The notes: generated by a model from the letters alone, not told the origin. A stretch of 64,000 nt of DNA from a plasmid (GCF_056746865.1 NZ_JBWKMP010000003.1), one strand, 5' to 3'; positions 6,860-53,807 are shown, counted from the stretch's first letter. Numbers and translations are program-made.

Positions 6860-7510
6860 ATGAATAACATGCCAACGAAAGAGCTTTTTAAGTTCCTTCC
6901 CAAATACAAAGCTCACAAAAACGTTAGTGCATCGAAAATTAAAAATGTTGTTATTTTCGGAGTAACTGATGCCCCACTTTGGGGCTGCATCGAACTCGTT
7001 GAACCAAAAGGGGCAACAGTTTGTGTTGACGCAATGTTTTTACAAAAACACCGACCAAAAACTGGCGGGTATCTGATCGTTTATGAAAACGGTTATCTGT
7101 TCTATGCCCCGGAGAAACCATTTGAGGAATGCTATGGCCTGGTTAACGACGCCTCCAAAAATGGAACCACGGTCATCATTACGGATGACAACGGCGTGAT
7201 GATTAATCTTACTGGGAGCGTAACTATTTCTGCTGGTGGCATCACCACCCAGCAAGAAGAAATCGACCTTGAAGCAGCCGACTTCTCTGATGCGCTAATG
7301 TGGTTGAAGGAAGGCAAGAAAGTTGCCCGACGCGAGTGGAAAGGCGAAAAGCAATTCTGCTGGTTAGTTCTCGCTGGAAGCGTCAATTTACACGGCATTC
7401 ACGTTCCTTATGGTGACCATTTTGTATTGAAAGATGCACAAAATATGGACAGCGTTTGGTTGCCGTCTGTGGATGATTTACTGGCCTGTGACTGGTTTGT
7501 TGTGGAGTGA
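6860..7510 (+). CDS. protein with C-terminal DUF2829-like domain (the family that includes Thoeris anti-defence Tad2)
   Basis: 216 aa. The C-terminal 75 aa (DFSDALMWLKEGKKVARREWKGEKQF...VDDLLACDWFVVE) fit the DUF2829 pattern: aromatic-x-A-L-x-x-G-K-K-V-R-R-x-W near the start and D-L-L-A-x-D-W near the end. Confidence 0.55.
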   Translation: MNNMPTKELFKFLPKYKAHKNVSASKIKNVVIFGVTDAPLWGCIELVEPKGATVCVDAMFLQKHRPKTGGYLIVYENGYLFYAPEKPFEECYGLVNDASKNGTTVIITDDNGVMINLTGSVTISAGGITTQQEEIDLEAADFSDALMWLKEGKKVARREWKGEKQFCWLVLAGSVNLHGIHVPYGDHFVLKDAQNMDSVWLPSVDDLLACDWFVVE

Positions 7511-36885: not shown

Positions 36886-37533
36886 GTGAGTCTTTGTGAT
36901 TATACAGGGAATATGGTTTCCCCCTGGCTGGAACACGGCATTGATGCAGTCATTGTCGATCCGCAACACCAGGAGTCCGGCAGCCAATTGATGGAGTCAG
37001 GTGCTGTACTCACACGTATCAGCGCAATTATTGACAGTGATGAGGTCTACAATTTCCTTCGGAAAAATTTGCACAGAGTTGTATTTTTAGCCGGTTTCCC
37101 TCCATGTACTGACCTGGCTGTATCTGGCGCACGCTGGTTCGCAGATAAAGCAAAAAAAGATCCGGTTTTCCAGTTCAAAGCAATGCAGGTTGTCTGGCAG
37201 TGTTACGACATTGCAAAGATGATTGGTTGCCCGTACATGATTGAAAACCCGGTCAGCCAAATATCGACATTCTGGCGTAAACCTGATCACATATTCCATC
37301 CTTATCACTTCACTGCATATTGCAAGGAAGACAATTACACCAAAAAAACATGCCTGTGGAGCGGACAAGGATTCATCATGCCAACTCCGCGAATCGACAA
37401 GTCGTTAGGTGATCCAGATAACCGAATACACAAGGCACCGCCAGGGCCTGAAAGAGCGAATTTTCGTAGCGCGACACCTTACGGTTTTGCAAGAGCTGTA
37501 TTTGAAGCAAATAAGGAGGGAATCCGTGGCTGA
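36886..37533 (+). CDS. DNA (cytosine-5) methyltransferase-like protein
   Basis: About 215 aa from a GTG after the rdgC stop. Motifs LAGFPPCTDLAVSG (PC motif IV) and MIENPV (ENV motif VI). Confidence 0.5.
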   Translation: MSLCDYTGNMVSPWLEHGIDAVIVDPQHQESGSQLMESGAVLTRISAIIDSDEVYNFLRKNLHRVVFLAGFPPCTDLAVSGARWFADKAKKDPVFQFKAMQVVWQCYDIAKMIGCPYMIENPVSQISTFWRKPDHIFHPYHFTAYCKEDNYTKKTCLWSGQGFIMPTPRIDKSLGDPDNRIHKAPPGPERANFRSATPYGFARAVFEANKEGIRG

Positions 37534-38285
37534 TATTGGTGCTAAATTTATTTCTTATAGCGACAATCATCGTCCTGCGGCGGAAGCCACTATCAGCCAT
37601 ATGCGACGTATTCGCTCGGAGGACGAATTTGATCGCCCAGTCTTTAAGTGGGTCGGCGGCAAATTTTCTGCACTGCCCATTATCTTCGAACACCTGCCCC
37701 ACGGAAAACGGTTGATAGAACCTTTCGTTGGAGGTGGCGCTGTTTTCACTAATGCCGGATTTAAAAGCAACCTGCTGAACGATATCAATAATGACCTGAT
37801 TAACTTCTATCAGACATTGCAGCGTGAAGGGCATTCTCTTATCACACTGGCATATCGTTTTTTTCAGGATTACAACTCTGCTGATGCATTTTTGAATGTT
37901 CGCAATGCATTCAACAATGGTGCTTATGATTCCCTTCACCATGCAGCGGCGTTCCTGTATCTCAATCGTCATTGTTTTAATGGCGTCACTCGCTATAACC
38001 GTAAAGGAGAGTTCAACGTCGGATATGGAAAGCAGAAATCACCCCACTTCCCTCTCGCGGAAATGGAGGCGTTCCTGGCTGACGATATTTCAAAGTATTC
38101 GGAATTTGTGTCCGGCGATTTTGCTGGTGTAATTGAGGCTGCCGGGAATGATGATGTGATTTTCTGCGATCCCCCCTATGAACCATTGCCTGACACTACC
38201 GGATTTACAAATTACTCAGGGCATAGCTTTAGGTTTGAAGATCAACAACGGCTGGTGTCACTGCTGGTGGATGCTGGATTTGCCC

Positions 38286-39191
38286 CTATATTTCCAGACA
38301 CCTGTTATCACTTAACCCATTACTGGCCCGCTGCCGTAGATATTCCCGTGGCGAGCGATAACCCAGTGCACTATGCGGATGCCATTCGTTATAATGCTCG
38401 AACGCCTCTGCAAGGTTCTTTGCTGCCGTTAACCCGTCTGGTTTAGGCATGATACTGATGTAGTCACGCTTTATCGTTTTCACGAAGCTCTCTGCTATGC
38501 CGTTACTCTCCGGACTCCGCACCGCCGTGTTCTTCGGTTCAAGCCCCAACATCCGGGCAAACTGCCGTGTTTCATTAGCCCGGTAGCATGAACCATTATC
38601 CGTCAGCCACTCTACTGGAGACGCCGGAAGCTCGTTGCCGAAGCGGCGTTCCACCGCTCCCAGCATTACGTCCTGTACTGTTTCACTGTCGAAGCCGCCC
38701 GTAGTGACTGCCCAGTGCAGTGCCTCACGGTCACAGCAGTCCAGCGCGAACGTGACTCGCAGTTTTTCTCCGTTATCACAGCGGAACTCGAACCCGTCAG
38801 AGCACCATCGTTGATTGCTTTCTTTCACGGCCACTTTGCCAGTATGTGCCCGTTTCGATGGCGGTACAGCGGTTTTTCGCTCAAGCAACAGCGCATTCTG
38901 GCGCATGATCCGGTAAACACGTTTGGCATTGATCGCAGGCATACCATCAAGTTCGGCCTGTCTGCGAAGCAGCGCCCATACCCGACGATAACCATACGTG
39001 GGCAGCTCTCCGATAACATGGTGTATACGGAGAAGCACATCCGTATCATCTGAGTGACGGCTGCGGCGACCATCTTTCCAGTCATCGGTTCGTCTGAGAA
39101 TGACGTGCAACTGCGCACGCGACACCCGGAGACAACGGCTGACTAAGCTTACTCCCCATCCCCGGGCAATAAGGGCGCGTGCGCTATCCAC
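38286..39191 (-). CDS. insD: IS2 OrfB (InsD) transposase catalytic part, expressed by -1 frameshift from OrfA
   Basis: 301 aa with the DDE region. An A-run slippery site lies in the orfA/orfB overlap (around 39190-39200). Confidence 0.93.
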
Positions 39192-39514
39192 TTTTTTGCA
39201 CGCCCGTATTCAACGGCTTCTTTAAGGAGTTCATTTTCCATCGTTTTTTTGCCGAGCAGGCGCTGGAGTTCTTTAATCTGCTTCATGGCAGCAGCAAGTT
39301 CAGAGGCAGGAACGACCTGCTCTCCTGCGGCCACAGCAGTAAGACTTCCCTCCTGGTATTGCTTGCGCCAGAGAAATAACTGGCTGGCTGCCACACCGTG
39401 TTGCCGGGCAACAAGGGAGACCGTCATTCCCGGTTCAAAACTCTGCTGAACAATAGCGATCTTTTCCTGTGTAGTACGCCGTCTGCGTTTCTCCGGTCCT
39501 AAGACATCAATCAT
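39149..39514 (-). CDS. insC: IS2 OrfA (InsC)
   Basis: 121 aa: [41 protein letters not shown]... Confidence 0.93.
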
Positions 39515-39780
39515 CTGCTCTCCAATGACTAGTCTAAAAACTAGTATTAAGACTATCACTTATTTAAGTGATATTGGTTGTCTGGAGATTCAGGGGGCCA
39601 GTCTAGATGCCCACAGACGCGGAGCGAAAATTGTGATAACAAACAGTGGTGCGCCTAACATTCGCGAACTTTACGTTGGCAATGGCTTCAAGGTGTATCC
39701 TATGCCATCCCGTCGCTCTGTATCCTGTAAAGCATCAACGCGAATGATAGCTAACGACATTATAGCCACACTTAATTAAG

Positions 39781-39802
39781 AAAAGCCCCATATGGGGCTT
39801 TT
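39781..39802 (+). terminator. rho-independent terminator after dam
   Basis: AAAAGCCCCA-TA-TGGGGCTTTT. Confidence 0.7.
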
Positions 39803-39827
39803 ATAACATCAAACAAGCACCGTTACG

Positions 39828-39860
39828 GTACACTAACAACACCATTCTGGTACTAAAAAG
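39828..39860. repeat. two tandem copies of CACCnTTnnGGTAC(n)TAA (candidate centromere repeats, downstream flank of the parA operon)
   Basis: CACCGTTACGGTACACTAA and CACCATTCTGGTACTAAA. A related copy lies at 41034-41051. Confidence 0.35.
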
Positions 39861-39914
39861 GAATCAAAGTAGCCTCAAAATAACACATGGACCCAAAACG
39901 GTGTCATTCCGGCG

Positions 39915-40202
39915 TCATTTTGTATCCTCAGACTCTGCAAGCATGAGGATAGCATGGCGGATCATATTCAATTTGCTGCGATTATGCTTTTTGCTTAACG
40001 CATCAAGTACCTGGTACTCGTATTCATTGAAGCCAACACGAATGGATTTAAAATCACGTGGGGCGTCCTTATCGAGCACTTTGTTGTCTTCTGGTTGCTC
40101 ACCCGGCACCAAATCAGCTTTGCTGGCAAAAGCCTCAATTCGGCGTTCAAGATCGAGGTCTTTTACTTCGGGGGCTTTTACCGATTTACGAGGCTTAATC
40201 AC
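39915..40202 (-). CDS. ribbon-helix-helix centromere-binding protein (ParG/type Ib ParB-like)
   Basis: 95 aa. Disordered basic N-terminus plus an RHH C-terminus (FKSIRVGFNEYEYQVLDALSKKHNRSKLNMIRHAILML). Overlaps the parA stop. Confidence 0.65.
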   Translation of the reverse strand: MIKPRKSVKAPEVKDLDLERRIEAFASKADLVPGEQPEDNKVLDKDAPRDFKSIRVGFNEYEYQVLDALSKKHNRSKLNMIRHAILMLAESEDTK

Positions 40203-40836
40203 TTAATAACTCCTTAACCAACATCTGGATTTCACCTTTAGCTTTCCCGTTGTCCATCTCAACAACGCCCTTCCCTTCAGCCATACAATCGCGGTAAACC
40301 TTGCGATCGCGAATGATGGTTTTCAGCAACTTCAGTTGCGGATATTCAGCCAGGTACTCTTTGGCCTCATTGGCTTCATTCACAACCGGATTGGATGGGG
40401 CCATTGTTAAAACTGCGCACGCCTTAATGCTAGGATTAGGCATCAGATCCAAAGCCTCTTCAAAGACTTCAACAAAATGCGCCAGCGTGTCTAAATCTGG
40501 CTGAGATGGCCTGAATGGAACAAGCAAAACATCCGCCGCAGTAATACCGGTGCGCATCTCTTTGCTATCACGACCAGCGGTATCAACAACCACAAATTCA
40601 TAACGCTTGTCCAGATCAAGAAGTGTTTCACGAATATTCCCAAACTTCTGGACGCAATGAATTACTGGAGAAACCTCTGCCGCATTACGGTCCGATGCCC
40701 AACGGGCAGATGTTCCTTGCTTATCTGCATCAAGTAGAACTACGTCCTTATTTGCGCGGGCAAGCTCCGCACAAATGTTTACGCTGGTGGTTGATTTGCC
40801 ACAGCCACCTTTTTGGCTGGCTACCAATATAATCAT
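40195..40836 (-). CDS. parA: ParA-family partition ATPase (type Ib, short)
   Basis: 213 aa. Deviant Walker A SQKGGCGKST, followed by VLLDADKQGT. Confidence 0.9.
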   Translation of the reverse strand: MIILVASQKGGCGKSTTSVNICAELARANKDVVLLDADKQGTSARWASDRNAAEVSPVIHCVQKFGNIRETLLDLDKRYEFVVVDTAGRDSKEMRTGITAADVLLVPFRPSQPDLDTLAHFVEVFEEALDLMPNPSIKACAVLTMAPSNPVVNEANEAKEYLAEYPQLKLLKTIIRDRKVYRDCMAEGKGVVEMDNGKAKGEIQMLVKELLSD

Positions 40837-40853
40837 ATCCGTCCCTCGGTGTT

Positions 40854-40869
40854 ATTTTGGTATCAAAAT
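40854..40869. promoter_or_regulatory. palindrome upstream of parA (possible autoregulatory operator)
   Basis: ATTTTG-GTAT-CAAAAT, 18 nt upstream of the parA start. Confidence 0.3.
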
Positions 40870-41028
40870 GGCTCCAAACAGAAGCCTTATTGATGCGGTT
40901 TTGGCTCTATAGTGGAGTCACTATGCTTTGCAAAAGTATAACACTAAACACTCGAAATTTGCCCTCTGTTGCATCCTGTTTAACACGAAGTCAGCCTCAA
41001 AGTGGAACCAGACACAAAACAGCACCAC

Positions 41029-41053
41029 AACAACACCGTTTTGGTACTAAAAG
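41029..41053. repeat. copy of the AACAACACCnTTnTGGTACTAAAAG repeat (upstream flank of the parA operon)
   Basis: AACAACACCGTTTTGGTACTAAAAG here, versus AACAACACCATTCTGGTACTAAAAAG at 39835-39860. Confidence 0.35.
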
Positions 41054-41078
41054 AGCACCAAATTAGAACCATAACAGT

Positions 41079-41106
41079 ATAAAAAAGGCTGCAAATTGCA
41101 GCCTTT
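41079..41106 (-). terminator. rho-independent terminator after parR
   Basis: On the minus strand: AAAGGCTGCAATTTGCAGCCTTTTTTA. Confidence 0.7.
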
Positions 41107-41121
41107 GAAGATGTAGATTTG

Positions 41122-41487
41122 TTAATCAGGGAGTGAGTTTGCCAAATTCTGTGCAGAGCGGCTTTTCGAAACGCCAGGTTTTTTAACATCCGCTGAGGCT
41201 GAGGGGTTTCCTTCAGGGTTTTCCCGAACTTCAGGCGAAATTTCAAGAAATGAAACCAGCATTTTTCTGATCACTTCAGGGCTATTATCACCGGATAAAA
41301 GCGATGCCAACATGGGAGGTAATCTGCTATCAACCTCGCCAAGAGCGATACCTGCAAGCATCGCTGTGCGCGCCATATCATTGCGATCTCTTAATGGATG
41401 GCCCTCAAGTTTTGCATCAGCATATTGCTCACTGGCGTTAAGACCAGGACGAAGATAAAACAATACTTTTCGACGTTCCTGAGACAT
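41122..41487 (-). CDS. parR: ParR-like centromere-binding adaptor
   Basis: 121 aa. MSQERRKVLFYLRPGLNASEQ...RNDMARTAMLAGIAL parallels R1 ParR (RRTIAFKLNPDVNQTD...RLNRAALTAGLAL). Lies directly downstream of parM. Confidence 0.7.
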   Translation of the reverse strand: MSQERRKVLFYLRPGLNASEQYADAKLEGHPLRDRNDMARTAMLAGIALGEVDSRLPPMLASLLSGDNSPEVIRKMLVSFLEISPEVRENPEGNPSASADVKKPGVSKSRSAQNLANSLPD

Positions 41488-41497
41488 GGCAACCTCA

Positions 41498-42457
41498 TCA
41501 ACCGATAGATTTTAGACCATAGACAAGAGCAAGTTGTGGATCATCAGCAACGAAAAACCTATCGTCACGAATGTTTACCTGCTCACGGATAGCATCAGCA
41601 ACAAGCGGCGCGCCGCCACCAATGACCATAACATGCGTGTATCCTTTGAAATCACTGATCACATCCAGTACGCGTGTACGGAGTCGTTCTATGCTTGACG
41701 AAATGGCTTTCTTAACATCATCAATAGCAGACGGATCGTTAATATTGTCGGTCAAATAATCCTCATCATCACGATTAATGATTAATTGATCGACATTATA
41801 ATTAGAGGTTTCGGTATTCGCTTTTGCAAGTGCCTGTCTGACCTCTTTAGTTACCAGCGAAACGCCGAGATTAGAATCGCCAAATACGCGAGAAACGGCG
41901 GTCATTTGCCCGGCGACCATCGACACATCCAGAGTAGTCCCACCAAGATCAACAATAAGCACAGAATGCGCTGGCACAAGGCTGTCGCACAGACCGATCC
42001 CTGCGGGTATTGACTCCGGGCGCACAGTCACTTTTTTGATAGTAAAAACCTGACCTTTGTTAAGGGTGACTGGTCGCATCAGGCTGGCCTTTTTCCGCTC
42101 AATATTTTTCATGTTGTATTGTGCGTCGTCGTCATAAAACTCTGCCAGTGGCAACGTGACAACTATTTCCACTTCTTGAGGCTCAATGCCACTTGTAAGC
42201 AGGGCATGATGAACAGCAAGCACATTAAGCGGGCTGTATTGCCATTCAACGTTATTCGTCGGCAGCACATCCGGCGAGATCAAGTCATATGAATATTTTT
42301 CGTCATCAATGATGTAGTTAAACGGCTTTCCTGCGCCAAATGTGGCGGACCATCCACGTTTAAAACTGTTCGGACAGATATGGGTTCGAGTTTCCCCGTC
42401 TTGTTCCCACAGCATTTTGATATTGGTAGAACCATCGTCGATAAAAATGCGCATCAT
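41498..42457 (-). CDS. parM: ParM/StbA actin-like segregation ATPase
   Basis: Starts MMRIFIDDGSTNIKM. Internal IVDLGGTTLDV. The track ORF begins 57 nt further upstream. Confidence 0.9.
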   Translation of the reverse strand: MMRIFIDDGSTNIKMLWEQDGETRTHICPNSFKRGWSATFGAGKPFNYIIDDEKYSYDLISPDVLPTNNVEWQYSPLNVLAVHHALLTSGIEPQEVEIVVTLPLAEFYDDDAQYNMKNIERKKASLMRPVTLNKGQVFTIKKVTVRPESIPAGIGLCDSLVPAHSVLIVDLGGTTLDVSMVAGQMTAVSRVFGDSNLGVSLVTKEVRQALAKANTETSNYNVDQLIINRDDEDYLTDNINDPSAIDDVKKAISSSIERLRTRVLDVISDFKGYTHVMVIGGGAPLVADAIREQVNIRDDRFFVADDPQLALVYGLKSIG

Positions 42458-42470
42458 ATTGCTCCACTTC

Positions 42471-42660
42471 TGAGACACATTTGAGAAAGAATTGAATTTT
42501 ATATGAGAAAACAAAATAAGACCAGAAGTTAGATAGCGTAAAAAGCATCAAACAAGAGACGTAAGAGAGACGCAAAAGAGACTTAGATGATACATGATGT
42601 ACCCACGATACCCGTTTGAGACAAATCAGAGACAAATGTGAGAAGTAAGAAATCTGAAGA
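42471..42660. repeat. parC: parC-like centromere/promoter: (A/T)GAGAC hexamers phased at 11 bp
   Basis: AGAGAC at 42555, 42566 and 42577. TGAGAC/AGAGAC/TGAGAA at 42617, 42628 and 42639. One extra TGAGAC at 42471. The two triplets are separated by about 35 bp, upstream of parM. Confidence 0.55.
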
Positions 42661-42706
42661 GTGAAAATCACAAAGTGGAGAAGATTTAAGAAAAAGGAGG
42701 TGTTAG

Positions 42707-42991
42707 ATGAGTGCAATAGCGACCAGTGACACAGTTTGTTCTGGTCATGGAGGATTCCCTCCGCGACCTGTAGCAGAAACAGTTTCCTGGTTTACCGTAA
42801 ATGGAAAGCCAGTGGTTGTAGATGGGGGAGCGTTCCCCAGCCATACAGACGGAAATAGCGCGCACCCCGGATCAGCCGTATCGACGCGCTCATGGTTTGC
42901 AATAGGCGGGAAAGGAGTTGTTTGTGTGGGAGATCCCCTTTCTTGTGGCTCAGTCATCGCCAATGGTGAGGCAATTTTTCAGGTGTCATAA
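42707..42991 (+). CDS. PAAR-domain spike-tip protein
   Basis: 94 aa. Gly/His/Cys-rich PAAR-like repeats (CSGHGGFPP, FPSHTDGNSAHPG, VGDPLSCGS). Confidence 0.7.
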   Translation: MSAIATSDTVCSGHGGFPPRPVAETVSWFTVNGKPVVVDGGAFPSHTDGNSAHPGSAVSTRSWFAIGGKGVVCVGDPLSCGSVIANGEAIFQVS

Positions 42992-43785
42992 TGCTTGATT
43001 CAATCGCTGAAGTTAATGCATTCAAAATTCTAAATGCATCAGGCACAACTACGCCTGCATCTATCACGCTAAGTAAAACAGCGTCATCCAATGCCAGTTC
43101 TCTGGAAGAGAATATCCAGGCTCTTATCCTGAAGGATAAAGCATACCCGGCGTCGGTGGTTTCATGGGTCAATCAGCTTTCTGTCTTTTCAGAACAACTG
43201 AAAACTGTCAGTGCAGAAGCAACCAATTTAGCCGACTCGCTGTCTCCGTATACTTCGCCAACTGAATTACTTCAGATGAAAATTGGCTGGGAATGTTACG
43301 TCAAAGGTAATGAGTTATCTCCTGCGCCAGAATTTGCTCTCGTAACAGTTATGGGAGATACCCTGCATCCGCAATCGCTTATTGACGCGTTGGCAGCATT
43401 TGAACTGGTGCCAATCACTTCAGCCATGACCGCTATAAATGCAAAAGTTCAGGCGTCAAGCGGGGAGGCTTCAGGCAACGGAAGTTCCACCGGAACAACA
43501 CAGCAACCAGCACTAACAGAAGAAGAGATCAAAGCACTAAAAGACGCTGTGGAAGCAGCAACAGAACAAATAAATGCAATAAACAACACGAGCAGTAGTC
43601 TCTCAACACTTGTACAGCAAGTTAAGGACTCTACCGGAAAAGCCAAACAGGGACTGGAGAATGCTGTAGCTATTACGTTAACCGGTTCTCTACTGGGCGA
43701 TGAAGTAATGAGTCCGGCAATCAGTTTGATCATGCCACAAGGTGTGATCGATGCGCTCCAAAACAACACTAAAAAGGAACCATAA
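42991..43785 (+). CDS. hypothetical protein
   Basis: 264 aa; ATG overlaps the PAAR stop (TAATG). Confidence 0.55.
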   Translation: MLDSIAEVNAFKILNASGTTTPASITLSKTASSNASSLEENIQALILKDKAYPASVVSWVNQLSVFSEQLKTVSAEATNLADSLSPYTSPTELLQMKIGWECYVKGNELSPAPEFALVTVMGDTLHPQSLIDALAAFELVPITSAMTAINAKVQASSGEASGNGSSTGTTQQPALTEEEIKALKDAVEAATEQINAINNTSSSLSTLVQQVKDSTGKAKQGLENAVAITLTGSLLGDEVMSPAISLIMPQGVIDALQNNTKKEP

Positions 43786-52618: not shown

Positions 52619-52912
52619 TTGAGGGCAATATCTACACCTGCTGTTTACGTCAATGATGGCATTTTTTACACATCACAACAAAATCAACGCGTTACAACCA
52701 TAAAACATTCAACAGTAGTGCGATAAAAATAGCTATAGCATACGATGCCATCTGAGGGTGATTTTTACACATTCCTTATTAATCAATAAATTACAAATAA
52801 TGTTAGCCGTTAAAGATCCAACCAACTAACTAATGATGTAAGAATTGCCCTCAATCTCCCATCTTTAAGGGCAAATCCTACACCTACAGAGAGGTGTAGA
52901 AATTGCCCTTAA
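52619..52912. repeat. downstream iteron array (incA-like)
   Basis: Iteron consensus TGAGGGCAAatCTTACACCT. Plus-orientation copies at 52619-52640, 52752-52773 and 52865-52885, with a degenerate copy at 52654-52674. Minus-orientation copies at 52835-52854 and 52892-52912. Confidence 0.7.
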
Positions 52913-53664
52913 GACTGCTGATAGGTGAATTTTATTTTTGTAACTCTGCCACCTTCTGTAACCTCTGAGAAAACTATTTTCATTTTTGTGTTTTTTTCGA
53001 TTTCAGCTACAGCTTTTGCCAGAAAGCTTCTCTTAAATTCGGCGTACCGTTGATAGCTTTTGGGAAGACCATAACGCTCCCGCATCCATTCAACGCCAAG
53101 TATAGCGAAGCCGCTCCCATCATCCTTTCTATACTGGCATAAGGACTCATAAAGCCGCATAGAATAAGGGTTTGTCAGGCGAGACACTTCAGTAAAATTC
53201 AGCCTCGTGAACCTCTTATCAAGCAGAGTAAAAAACGGCATGAGATATGGATTCAGATGAATAATGTAAGTCCCCCGGCGTGGTGAGTAAGCCTCCTTAA
53301 TCATCCAGGGATAAGACTCATAACTGTCTTCTGATTCGGTTGATTCATCAGGGTTATATATCGTGACTTTCTTCTCACTAAGTCCGGAGATAGCTTTACG
53401 AATATCCTTGCTGGCTTCAGCAGAGGGCAAATTATACATCTCTGCATATTCGTTGACCGTCAACTCACAGGCACCTGAACCAAGAACGCCATCCTTAGAA
53501 GCATAGCGAAGTCTTCCCACCACAATAAACAACAGTCGCTTTTGGTCGCGTGTCAGGTGATAAGCCGCCTCTGTGATCTCATTGGCCTGCGCCAAGCTAC
53601 GGCTAATTGGTGTCGCTGATTCAATCAGACTGACGGCTTTTGCCGTTAATTCCGCTCTGTTCAT
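52909..53664 (-). CDS. repA: iteron-binding replication initiator RepA (Rep_3 family)
   Basis: 251 aa from MNRAELTAK. Flanked on both sides by roughly 20-bp iterons. Winged-helix Rep pattern (LTRDQKRLLFIVV..., NPYSMRLYESLCQY...). Confidence 0.85.
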   Translation of the reverse strand: MNRAELTAKAVSLIESATPISRSLAQANEITEAAYHLTRDQKRLLFIVVGRLRYASKDGVLGSGACELTVNEYAEMYNLPSAEASKDIRKAISGLSEKKVTIYNPDESTESEDSYESYPWMIKEAYSPRRGTYIIHLNPYLMPFFTLLDKRFTRLNFTEVSRLTNPYSMRLYESLCQYRKDDGSGFAILGVEWMRERYGLPKSYQRYAEFKRSFLAKAVAEIEKNTKMKIVFSEVTEGGRVTKIKFTYQQS

Positions 53665-53687: not shown

Positions 53688-53807
53688 GTGAGGGCAATTT
53701 TTACATCACTTTGAGGGCAATTACTACACCTTTTGAGGGCAAATCTTACACCTGCTGAGGGCAAATCTTACACCTCAATAGCTTAATTGAGGGCAAATCT
53801 TACACCT
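53688..53807. repeat. five direct iterons over the repA promoter (incC/origin-like)
   Basis: Copies at 53688-53708, 53711-53731, 53733-53753, 53755-53775 and 53787-53807. The three central copies are spaced exactly 22 bp apart. Confidence 0.8.

Follow-up and report, generated by a model that had tools for sequence, protein, structure and literature searches.

On the E. coli virulence plasmid pB171, whose double par locus is the subject of papers by Ebersbach and Gerdes (2001) and Ringgaard et al. (2007), two divergent partition operons share a central site, parC1, and in its par2 system the ParB protein binds parC1 upstream and parC2 downstream. Work by Ebersbach and Gerdes in 2001 is said to have found that both of its systems, par1 (ParM/ParR) and par2 (ParA/ParB), stabilise plasmids. 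The parH site of TP228 consists of tetramers with 4-bp spacers. The parC site of plasmid R1 has five 11-bp iterons in each of two sets around the promoter; ParR occupies them as about one dimer per iteron, acts as repressor of the operon and links the DNA to filaments of ParM (PMC2241845). In type Ib systems, dimers of ribbon-helix-helix (RHH) proteins bind short direct and inverted repeats and activate the ParA ATPase through their N-terminal tails, and the domain plan of ParG and omega is a basic N-terminal tail followed by the RHH (PMC5016525). A 2026 survey of PLSDB found type I systems with an RHH ParB together with type II systems in 971 accessions and called the combination previously reported (PMC13245405), and the partition system of a D6-like Salmonella plasmid has been given as cop, parA, stbB and parM (PMC6799933). 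Here we analyse two such systems that lie side by side on a 64,000-nucleotide stretch of plasmid DNA (NZ_JBWKMP010000003.1; the whole stretch is called the window below). With a probability of about three in four, we regard this region as the partition locus of a D6-like phage-plasmid, with two tandem cassettes that are autonomous and transcribed separately, one ParMRC and the other type Ib.

A ParMRC and a type Ib cassette in tandem

The four par genes all lie on the minus strand, in the 5′ to 3′ order parM, parR, parA and the gene for a 95-amino-acid RHH-like protein (Table 1). The gene calls, together with Pfam and structure matches, uphold the initial annotation, which had proposed two mechanistically different partition systems adjacent on one strand. 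ParM matches Pfam StbA_N (2e-69) and the ParM C-terminal domain (9e-56), aligns end to end with the R1 ParM structures 1mwk and 4a62 (E 1e-110), and shares 53.6% identity with a similarly scoring ParM from an IncF plasmid, here treated as R1-type, and 42% with the pB171-type ParM. For all pB171 comparisons we used a related IncF plasmid (L009), whose locus was checked as pB171-type by a ParR essentially identical to the 2jd3 sequence. The parR gene starts 10 bp past the parM stop, and its product is recognised by Pfam Plasmid_stab_B (3e-14; 53 bits against a cut-off of 25) and matches the pB171 ParR structure 2jd3 weakly (4e-7) over residues 3–78, the RHH part. With a two-domain ParM, a ParR downstream and direct repeats upstream, the first cassette reads as a type II ParMRC system.

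ParA has the sequence KGGCGKST at residues 9–16, matches the Pfam families AAA_31, MipZ, CbiA and VirC1, aligns over its full length with TP228 ParF (4dzz, 3e-18) and is 42% identical to the pB171-type ParA. A small ParA lacking a helix-turn-helix (HTH) domain, an RHH-like partner gene coupled to it in translation and an adjacent repeat array place the second cassette, as judged from its sequence, among the type Ib systems. The ParF alignment, the 8-bp overlap of the two genes and several weak lines of evidence for an RHH also agree with the first description of this operon as a short Walker-type parA followed by a 95-amino-acid RHH protein. Rfam gave no match within 39500–43000, and PADLOC gave only noise at the level of the P-loop and no meaningful match.

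The two operons are separated by an intrinsic terminator on the parR side, which is kept in all four variants compared (the window, D6 and two further relatives, L005 and L007). The place of this conserved terminator, between parR and the parA array, suggests that they are insulated from each other, in contrast to the divergent pB171 operons with their common parC1. At the other end of the locus, a GC-rich hairpin with T runs on both strands is likely to be a bidirectional terminator that closes both the parA-RHH operon and the convergent dam gene. It was read from the sequence, having been missed by a simple terminator scan, and its equivalent closes the downstream array in L005 and L007.

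The model of the 95-amino-acid protein has an N-terminal basic motif and a helix at residues 16–28, a disordered linker, and a C-terminal RHH at about residues 52–93. In the AlphaFold prediction, helices 60–73 and 77–93 follow an extended segment, and the predicted local distance difference test score (pLDDT) is 75–82 over residues 60–90. ParG, Arc, CopG, MazE, TacA and AmrZ head the list of Foldseek matches, all of them non-significant. The protein matches PHROG 9169 (function unknown) at 3e-60 and the Arc-like phrog_3431 at 4.7e-4, and the profile of its family covers CopG in full (E 0.09). A word-indexed homologue search returned close relatives only; an exhaustive search of representatives, used in its place, gave a family of about 100 clusters at 50% identity, mostly of 55–130 amino acids. 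Among family members, Pfam recognises NikA-like domains in 12 of 69 and RHH_1 in 7 of 69, and TacA, RHH_7 and TraY domains in others, all of which we take to be ribbon-helix-helix families. Residues R5, F25, N59, E62, L66, R75 and R82 are near-invariant in the family alignment, and R20, R21 and the whole strand KSIRV are invariant among the D6-like proteins. These lines are individually weak and they agree, and we accept that the C-terminal half of the protein is probably RHH-like. Membership of the ParG family was rejected, there being no Pfam ParG match and no PDB sequence match at E ≤ 10, as was membership of the pB171 ParB family (BLASTP E 2.1). The protein belongs to an unnamed family, “hypothetical” in RefSeq and of “unknown function” in PHROGs, to which a probable partition role can now be assigned.

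Phased repeats around both operons

The motif WGAGAC occurs at 42471, 42555, 42566, 42577, 42617 and 42628, all within a region of at most 165 bp upstream of parM (42471–42633). These are six of its 28 matches on both strands of the window, over which 45 would be expected overall. The initial annotation had described two triplets of such hexamers phased at 11 bp; the first (42555, 42566 and 42577) stands, as do 42617 and 42628 of the second, but 42639 reads TGAGAA rather than GAGAC. The first triplet marks block A of the parC-like iterons, and the 100-bp window starting at 42551 has the highest autocorrelation z score at lag 11 (z11) of the entire 64 kb, 5.7. Block B begins 40 bp from the last block A unit, and D6-type variants have TCTCA boxes at positions aligned to it. 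Closer to parM, TGAGA(C/A) units at 42471, 42482 and 42504, the latter two being TGAGAA, keep an 11-bp register of their own. Only the last ~45 bp of the parM upstream region, which hold the TAAAAT, two TCTCA boxes and the ribosome-binding site, can be aligned with the D6-type variants. The echo of R1 parC that had been heard in this region is real as far as the two 11-bp blocks go, but the arrangement is 3 + 3 units plus three proximal boxes, not 5 + 5.

The parA-RHH operon had been described as bracketed by copies of one repeat. The 24-nt AACAACACCnTTnTGGTACTAAAA does stand at 39835–39858 and 41029–41052, its sole two matches in 64 kb with up to three mismatches, where 100 shuffles led us to expect 0; the similarity of the two copies reaches 38 nt at 82% (repeat family D3). 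Related repeats are found on both sides of the operon, but they form no simple bracket: the AACAACACCnTTnTGGTACTAAAA pair are the best-matching units within two longer arrays of 11-bp-phased TGGTRYY boxes. The units of the upstream array, read in the sense direction from 41071 to 41006, are TGGTTCTAATT, TGGTGCTCTTT, TAGTACCAAAA, CGGTGTTGTTG (CGGTGTTGTT G), TGGTGCTGTTT and TGTGTCTGGTT, and its lag-11 z is 3.8 in the window and 3.3–5.2 in relatives. In the downstream array, lag 11 likewise gives the top autocorrelation (z 3.3 in the window and 4.2–4.4 in D6, L005 and L007). An extra repeat reported there, CACCGTTACGGTACACTAA, is present, but at 39818–39836, ten bases to the left of the 39828–39846 first assigned to it.

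Between the two arrays, ATTTTGGTATCAAAAT had been called a palindrome; its position, 40854–40869, was right, but it is only a near-palindrome, with 6-bp arms around a non-symmetric GTAT. It is shared with D6; L005 and L007 lack it but still have box-like sequences there. The two inverted boxes that begin at the same position are likely an operator, and the 100-bp window from 40851 has a z11 of 3.3. The tentative parA promoter upstream of these boxes is conserved in D6 (TTGCCA, 17 nt, TATAGA) and not in L005 or L007; a consensus promoter scan found nothing convincing on the minus strand and did not recover it.

The box in the form TGGYRYY was derived from the units of the window and D6, leaving L005 and L007 as independent variants. 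The two arrays hold 11 such boxes against 1.7 expected in L005 (p 4.5e-7) and 11 against 1.5 in L007 (p 9e-8); the window shows less enrichment (6 against 1.1, p 7.5e-4). A homologous cassette from Serratia has GGTACTAAATTAACACC upstream and TGGCACTAAAATTACACC downstream. Across the three non-coding stretches and four variants, the 11-bp lag was the strongest in 12 of 12 tests, with z from 3.3 to 5.2. In a control scan of the whole window, z11 reaches 3.3 or more in only 0.3% of 100-bp windows, and of the nine windows with z ≥ 3, four belong to the par locus. Outside it, the windows near 7401, 7851 and 25301 had no evident repeat units when inspected and look like chance. The sequence TGGTACTAAAA was rejected as a specific marker, given 19 matches with two mismatches against 15 expected.

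Table 1. Features of the partition locus, in window coordinates
Feature	Position	Strand	Details
Intergenic region, 246 bp	upstream of parM		common to the divergent PAAR-domain gene 42707–42991
Block B	42615–42647	-	TTCTCA (degenerate, 42639), GTCTCT (42628), GTCTCA (42617), 11 bp apart; repeat family D1
Block A	42549–42582	-	three 11-bp units GTCTCTnnnnn; AGAGAC at 42555, 42566, 42577 on + strand
Tentative parM -35, TGGTCT	42524–42519	-	promoter assignment made by eye
Promoter-proximal TCTCA boxes	42471–42514	-	at 42509, 42487, 42476 (sense), 11-bp register, around conserved TAAAAT 42501–42496
parM (StbA)	41498–42454	-	actin-like ATPase, 318 amino acids; 320 with upstream ATG at 42460
parR (StbB-type adaptor)	41122–41487	-	121 amino acids, N-terminal RHH
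Intrinsic terminator AAAGGCTGCAATTTGCAGCCTTT + T run	41084–41106	-	10-pair stem (terminator scan); 3′ of parR
Non-coding stretch, 250 bp	between parR terminator and parA
Upstream array	41006–41071	-	six direct 11-bp units; holds the copy at 41029–41053; analogous to parC1
Tentative parA promoter, TTGCAA, 16 nt, TATAGA	40906–40933	-	by eye; low confidence
Two inverted boxes, TGGTATCAAAA + TGGCTCCAAAC	40854–40880	+	between tentative promoter and parA ribosome-binding site
parA	40195–40836	-	213-amino-acid deviant-Walker-A ATPase, KGGCGKST, without N-terminal HTH domain
95-amino-acid RHH gene	39915–40202	-	candidate centromere-binding protein; 8-bp overlap with parA
Non-coding stretch, 110 bp	downstream of RHH gene
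Downstream array	39804–39914	-	11-bp-phased TGGTRYY-like boxes; holds the copy at 39835–39860; analogous to parC2
CACCGTTACGGTAC	39818–39831		within downstream array
Hairpin AAAAGCCCC-ATAT-GGGGCTTTT	39781–39802	.	GC-rich, T runs on both strands; read from sequence

Host element, history and competing readings

The locus has 85% nucleotide identity to phage D6 and 99.9% to NZ_LR890273, a 92.8-kb non-mobilizable E. coli plasmid annotated with P1-like phage genes, repB, phd/doc and higBA. By this similarity the host element is a D6-like (P1-g2) phage-plasmid and not P1 proper. A type Ia ParAB/parS system of the P1 kind (large HTH ParA, HTH ParB and parS by the replicon) was rejected: neither it nor any other partition gene is annotated on the whole 92.8 kb of NZ_LR890273. 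The repB gene lies ~10.5 kb from the par locus, which fits the published separation of partition and replication in the P1-g2 (D6-like) subgroup (PMC7969092, Pfeifer et al.).

Relatives keep both cassettes. In PLSDB, ParM homologues of at least 80% identity occur in 119 records, ParA homologues of at least 80% in 118 and RHH-protein homologues of at least 60% in 118, and the D6-like records inspected carry both cassettes. Of 5,426 complete genomes of E. coli, 100 match one cassette and 95 the other, in each case at a single place per genome, on a plasmid of ~90 kb and never on the chromosome. Against three variants, the ratio of non-synonymous to synonymous substitution rates (dN/dS) is 0.013–0.023 for parM, 0.03–0.06 for parA and 0.05–0.12 for the RHH gene; L006 (pSa1423-90k), with its many frameshifts in the region, was left out of the comparisons. 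The initial annotation had raised the decay of one cassette in relatives as a way in which its reading could fail; because dN/dS is this low (0.01–0.12 over the three genes) and retention this general, neither cassette is decaying. In one D6-like record, CP042632.1, the ParA match is in two pieces and no ParA coding sequence is annotated, possibly owing to a frameshift or a sequencing error; this is the sole possibly defective cassette among the matches listed.

The two cassettes have different histories, because in a comparison of the window with D6 parM has reached saturation in synonymous divergence (dS 2.9), while parA (0.37) and the RHH gene (0.19) have diverged little. ParR of the window type is 57–59% identical to that of the D6 type (L002, which is D6, and L005 and L007), and ParM, whose gene lies between parR and parC (42461–42700), is 94% identical. 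The window ParR allele occurs in seven PLSDB records, while most other D6-like records carry the D6-type allele (56–59% identity), and 17 E. coli genomes hold a full-length, near-identical copy of the window-type parMR cassette. A recent import of the window ParR into a D6 backbone was rejected, given that parM is itself saturated for dS against D6; because of this saturation, the whole parMR cassette is an old, diverged lineage beside a parA-RHH cassette close to that of D6. Each cassette also travels alone: the nearest ParMR outside the D6-like family (ParM 70%) is alone on a Providencia plasmid, ParA-RHH homologues are alone on a Serratia plasmid, and on a 32-kb Moraxella plasmid such homologues are the only partition-like genes annotated. 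The ParR/parC allelic split may mark separate partition-incompatibility groups.

By homology with R1, pB171 and TP228, we would expect both cassettes to be active, with DNA binding, ATPase stimulation, autoregulation and plasmid stabilisation. Dimers of ParR, through their N-terminal RHH, would bind the 11-bp TCTC iterons, both the two distal blocks of three and the three promoter-proximal boxes, and the ParR-DNA complex would cap ParM-ATP filaments that push sister plasmids apart, and would in addition repress the operon. In the second cassette, dimers of the 95-amino-acid protein may coat the two 11-bp-phased TGGTRYY arrays, one upstream of parA and the other downstream of the RHH gene, and the inverted boxes over the parA leader could serve autoregulation. 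Stimulation of the small Walker ParA would come from the flexible tail at the N terminus of the RHH protein, and ParA bound to the nucleoid would position the plasmids. The anatomy of the locus fits the R1-type and type Ib models point for point.

Several observations weigh against this interpretation. We infer the binding of either protein to its repeats by analogy. ParA scores 158 bits on the NCBIfam model ParA_partition, below its cut-off of 180, with model positions 1–203 of 203 covered. The AlphaFold model of the 95-amino-acid protein has a mean pLDDT of only 61, and Foldseek gives it no significant structural match (best E 0.7); taken alone, the protein passes no Pfam threshold, with no Pfam family at E ≤ 10, and BLASTP detects no similarity to the pB171-type ParB. 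The promoters of the locus were not convincingly located. The boxes are degenerate, TGGTRYY alone being unspecific with 89 matches in the window, and the TGGYRYY enrichment is weak in D6 (p 0.03) and non-significant in the distant Serratia homologue (p 0.19). The sub-regions for autocorrelation were picked by eye, and the shuffles kept base composition only.

A rather unlikely but tenable account is that one cassette alone segregates the element in E. coli, the other acting as a back-up in Salmonella, Shigella and E. marmotae, in incompatibility or exclusion, or at another stage such as establishment after infection. On SCP1, only one of two intact partition systems is critical in the laboratory, and roles in host range or incompatibility have been proposed (PMC13245405), a precedent that counts for this account and also against two working cassettes. 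D6-like elements do occur in Escherichia, Salmonella and Shigella, and the strong diversification of ParR/parC, with its two alleles, the minority one in so few records, and its unalignable parC, is the pattern expected under diversifying incompatibility pressure. However, purifying selection on the two motor genes is very strong, homologues of ParM, ParA and the RHH protein occur in near-equal counts of D6-like records, and a search of the whole window for P1 C1 operators, which could have linked one or other operon to the lysis-lysogeny switch, found none. The pB171 precedent, in which par1 and par2 reportedly both stabilise, also speaks against it.

Very unlikely, by comparison, is that ParA-RHH serves regulation, its small protein being a CopG-like “cop” repressor, the associated ATPase having some other function and the repeats being ordinary operators. 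A cop gene is indeed listed beside parA on the Salmonella plasmid (PMC6799933), RHH proteins are mostly repressors, and the best sequence matches are to CopG, Arc and NikA rather than ParG. Yet the two genes overlap by 8 bp and travel together in Enterobacterales, Moraxella, Acinetobacter and Aeromonas, as the sole partition-like module annotated on the Moraxella plasmid; ParA aligns end to end with TP228 ParF and shares 42% identity with the pB171-type ParA; the second array lies downstream of the operon and thus cannot act as an operator; and the replication gene is ~10.5 kb away, with no meaningful PADLOC match. That the repeats are chance, or a by-product of AT-rich intergenic DNA and terminators, is effectively refuted. 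The boxes are short and degenerate, two-copy families often arise by chance, and a few coding windows elsewhere reach a z11 of ~3, but none of this accounts for a 24-nt pattern found twice with 0 expected, six WGAGAC within 165 bp against 28 in 128 kb (both strands), lag 11 on top in every region-by-variant test, or a box enrichment of p ~1e-7 in the independent variants. Two autonomous partition cassettes remain our preferred reading of the locus.

The neighbourhood of the locus offers a few further observations. IS2 (1,331 bp, 38275–39605, with a 5-bp target duplication at 38270–38274 and 39606–39610) sits directly beside it, ~170 bp before the end of a Dam-family methyltransferase gene that is split into 37409–38274 and a remnant at 39606–39779; the gene is uninterrupted in NZ_LR890273. 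In D6, a glutaminyl-tRNA synthetase gene (orf62; L002 4069–5730) stands between the dam-like and RHH genes, and it is absent from that position in the window and the other relatives inspected. On the other flank, 42707–43785 encodes a PAAR-domain protein of 94 amino acids (noted in D6 as like P1 upfC) and a 264-amino-acid protein (like P1 upfB). Because these genes are divergent from parM, their promoter must share the 246-bp iteron region. Farther off, five direct iterons of consensus TGAGGGCAAATCTTACACCT, spaced ~22 bp apart at 53688–53807, lie just upstream of the repB homologue (~52909–53664, minus strand, mapped from NZ_LR890273) and presumably form the plasmid replication origin.

Relation to described partition loci

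The double locus is conserved in D6-like phage-plasmids, yet it is a common and already described combination, an ordinary partition locus and not a new kind of system. The initial annotation had called the pairing unusual, a view at odds with the pB171-type double locus of L009, the 971 PLSDB accessions of the recent survey (PMC13245405) and the annotation that the D6 genes already carry. Three things may be undescribed: the two flanking 11-bp arrays, the assignment of the 95-amino-acid family to the type Ib centromere-binding proteins, and the split of ParR/parC into two alleles. Beyond this, it is conceivable, if quite doubtful, that the 95-amino-acid protein represents an unnamed type Ib centromere-binding family with 11-bp arrays on both flanks, that the cassettes divide the labour, ParMRC separating sisters and ParA-RHH positioning plasmids on the nucleoid, or serve different hosts or life-cycle stages, and that rapid ParR/parC diversification sets incompatibility groups among co-circulating phage-plasmids. 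D6-like phage-plasmids are present in roughly 2% of complete E. coli genomes and also in Salmonella and Shigella, sometimes beside resistance plasmids. Since partition-mediated incompatibility depends on the determinants and their centromere sites, knowing the true ones can help predict which elements coexist, and the locus is a small, natural setting in which to ask why systems of type II and type Ib so often pair.

Compared with R1, the first cassette has the same end-to-end ParM match, parR directly downstream of parM, and 11-bp direct iterons upstream of parM in two blocks with a core of ~29–34 bp. It differs in having three units per block instead of five, plus three promoter-proximal boxes, and an iteron core of GTCTC(T/A), and its promoter may be proximal to both blocks rather than between them; ParR matched only Pfam Plasmid_stab_B and, weakly, pB171 ParR. 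The second cassette resembles TP228 ParF/ParG/parH in its small ParA without HTH, aligned full-length to ParF, in a partner whose model joins a disordered N-terminal tail to a C-terminal RHH, and in its arrays of short boxes, direct and inverted, near the operon (PMC5016525). Unlike in TP228, the partner is not of the ParG family by sequence, a second array lies downstream of the operon, and the boxes are 11 bp apart.

The likeness to pB171 concerns the locus as a whole: type II and type Ib RHH cassettes are directly adjacent on one low-copy replicon, ParA has ~213 amino acids and the centromere-binding protein ~91–95, and repeat arrays flank the operon, one before parA and one after the small gene. 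The shared-parC1, divergent layout of the pB171 type, as seen in L009, was nonetheless rejected for the window, where both operons follow one another on the minus strand and are separated by a conserved terminator. The array period is 11 bp here and ~7 bp in the pB171-type parC1 and parC2, the small protein has no sequence similarity to pB171 ParB, and ParM is nearer to that of R1 (53.6%) than to the pB171 type (42%). Closest of all is D6, another P1-g2 element, whose orf58-61 (GenBank MF356679) are the same four genes in the same order and genomic neighbourhood, labelled StbA, StbB and “possible ParA” in its GenBank record. ParM is 94%, ParA 96% and the RHH protein 96% identical between the two, whereas for ParR the identity is only 59%, and parC can be aligned over no more than its last ~45 bp; D6 also has glnS between dmt and orf61, and the window has IS2 in the dam gene beside the locus.

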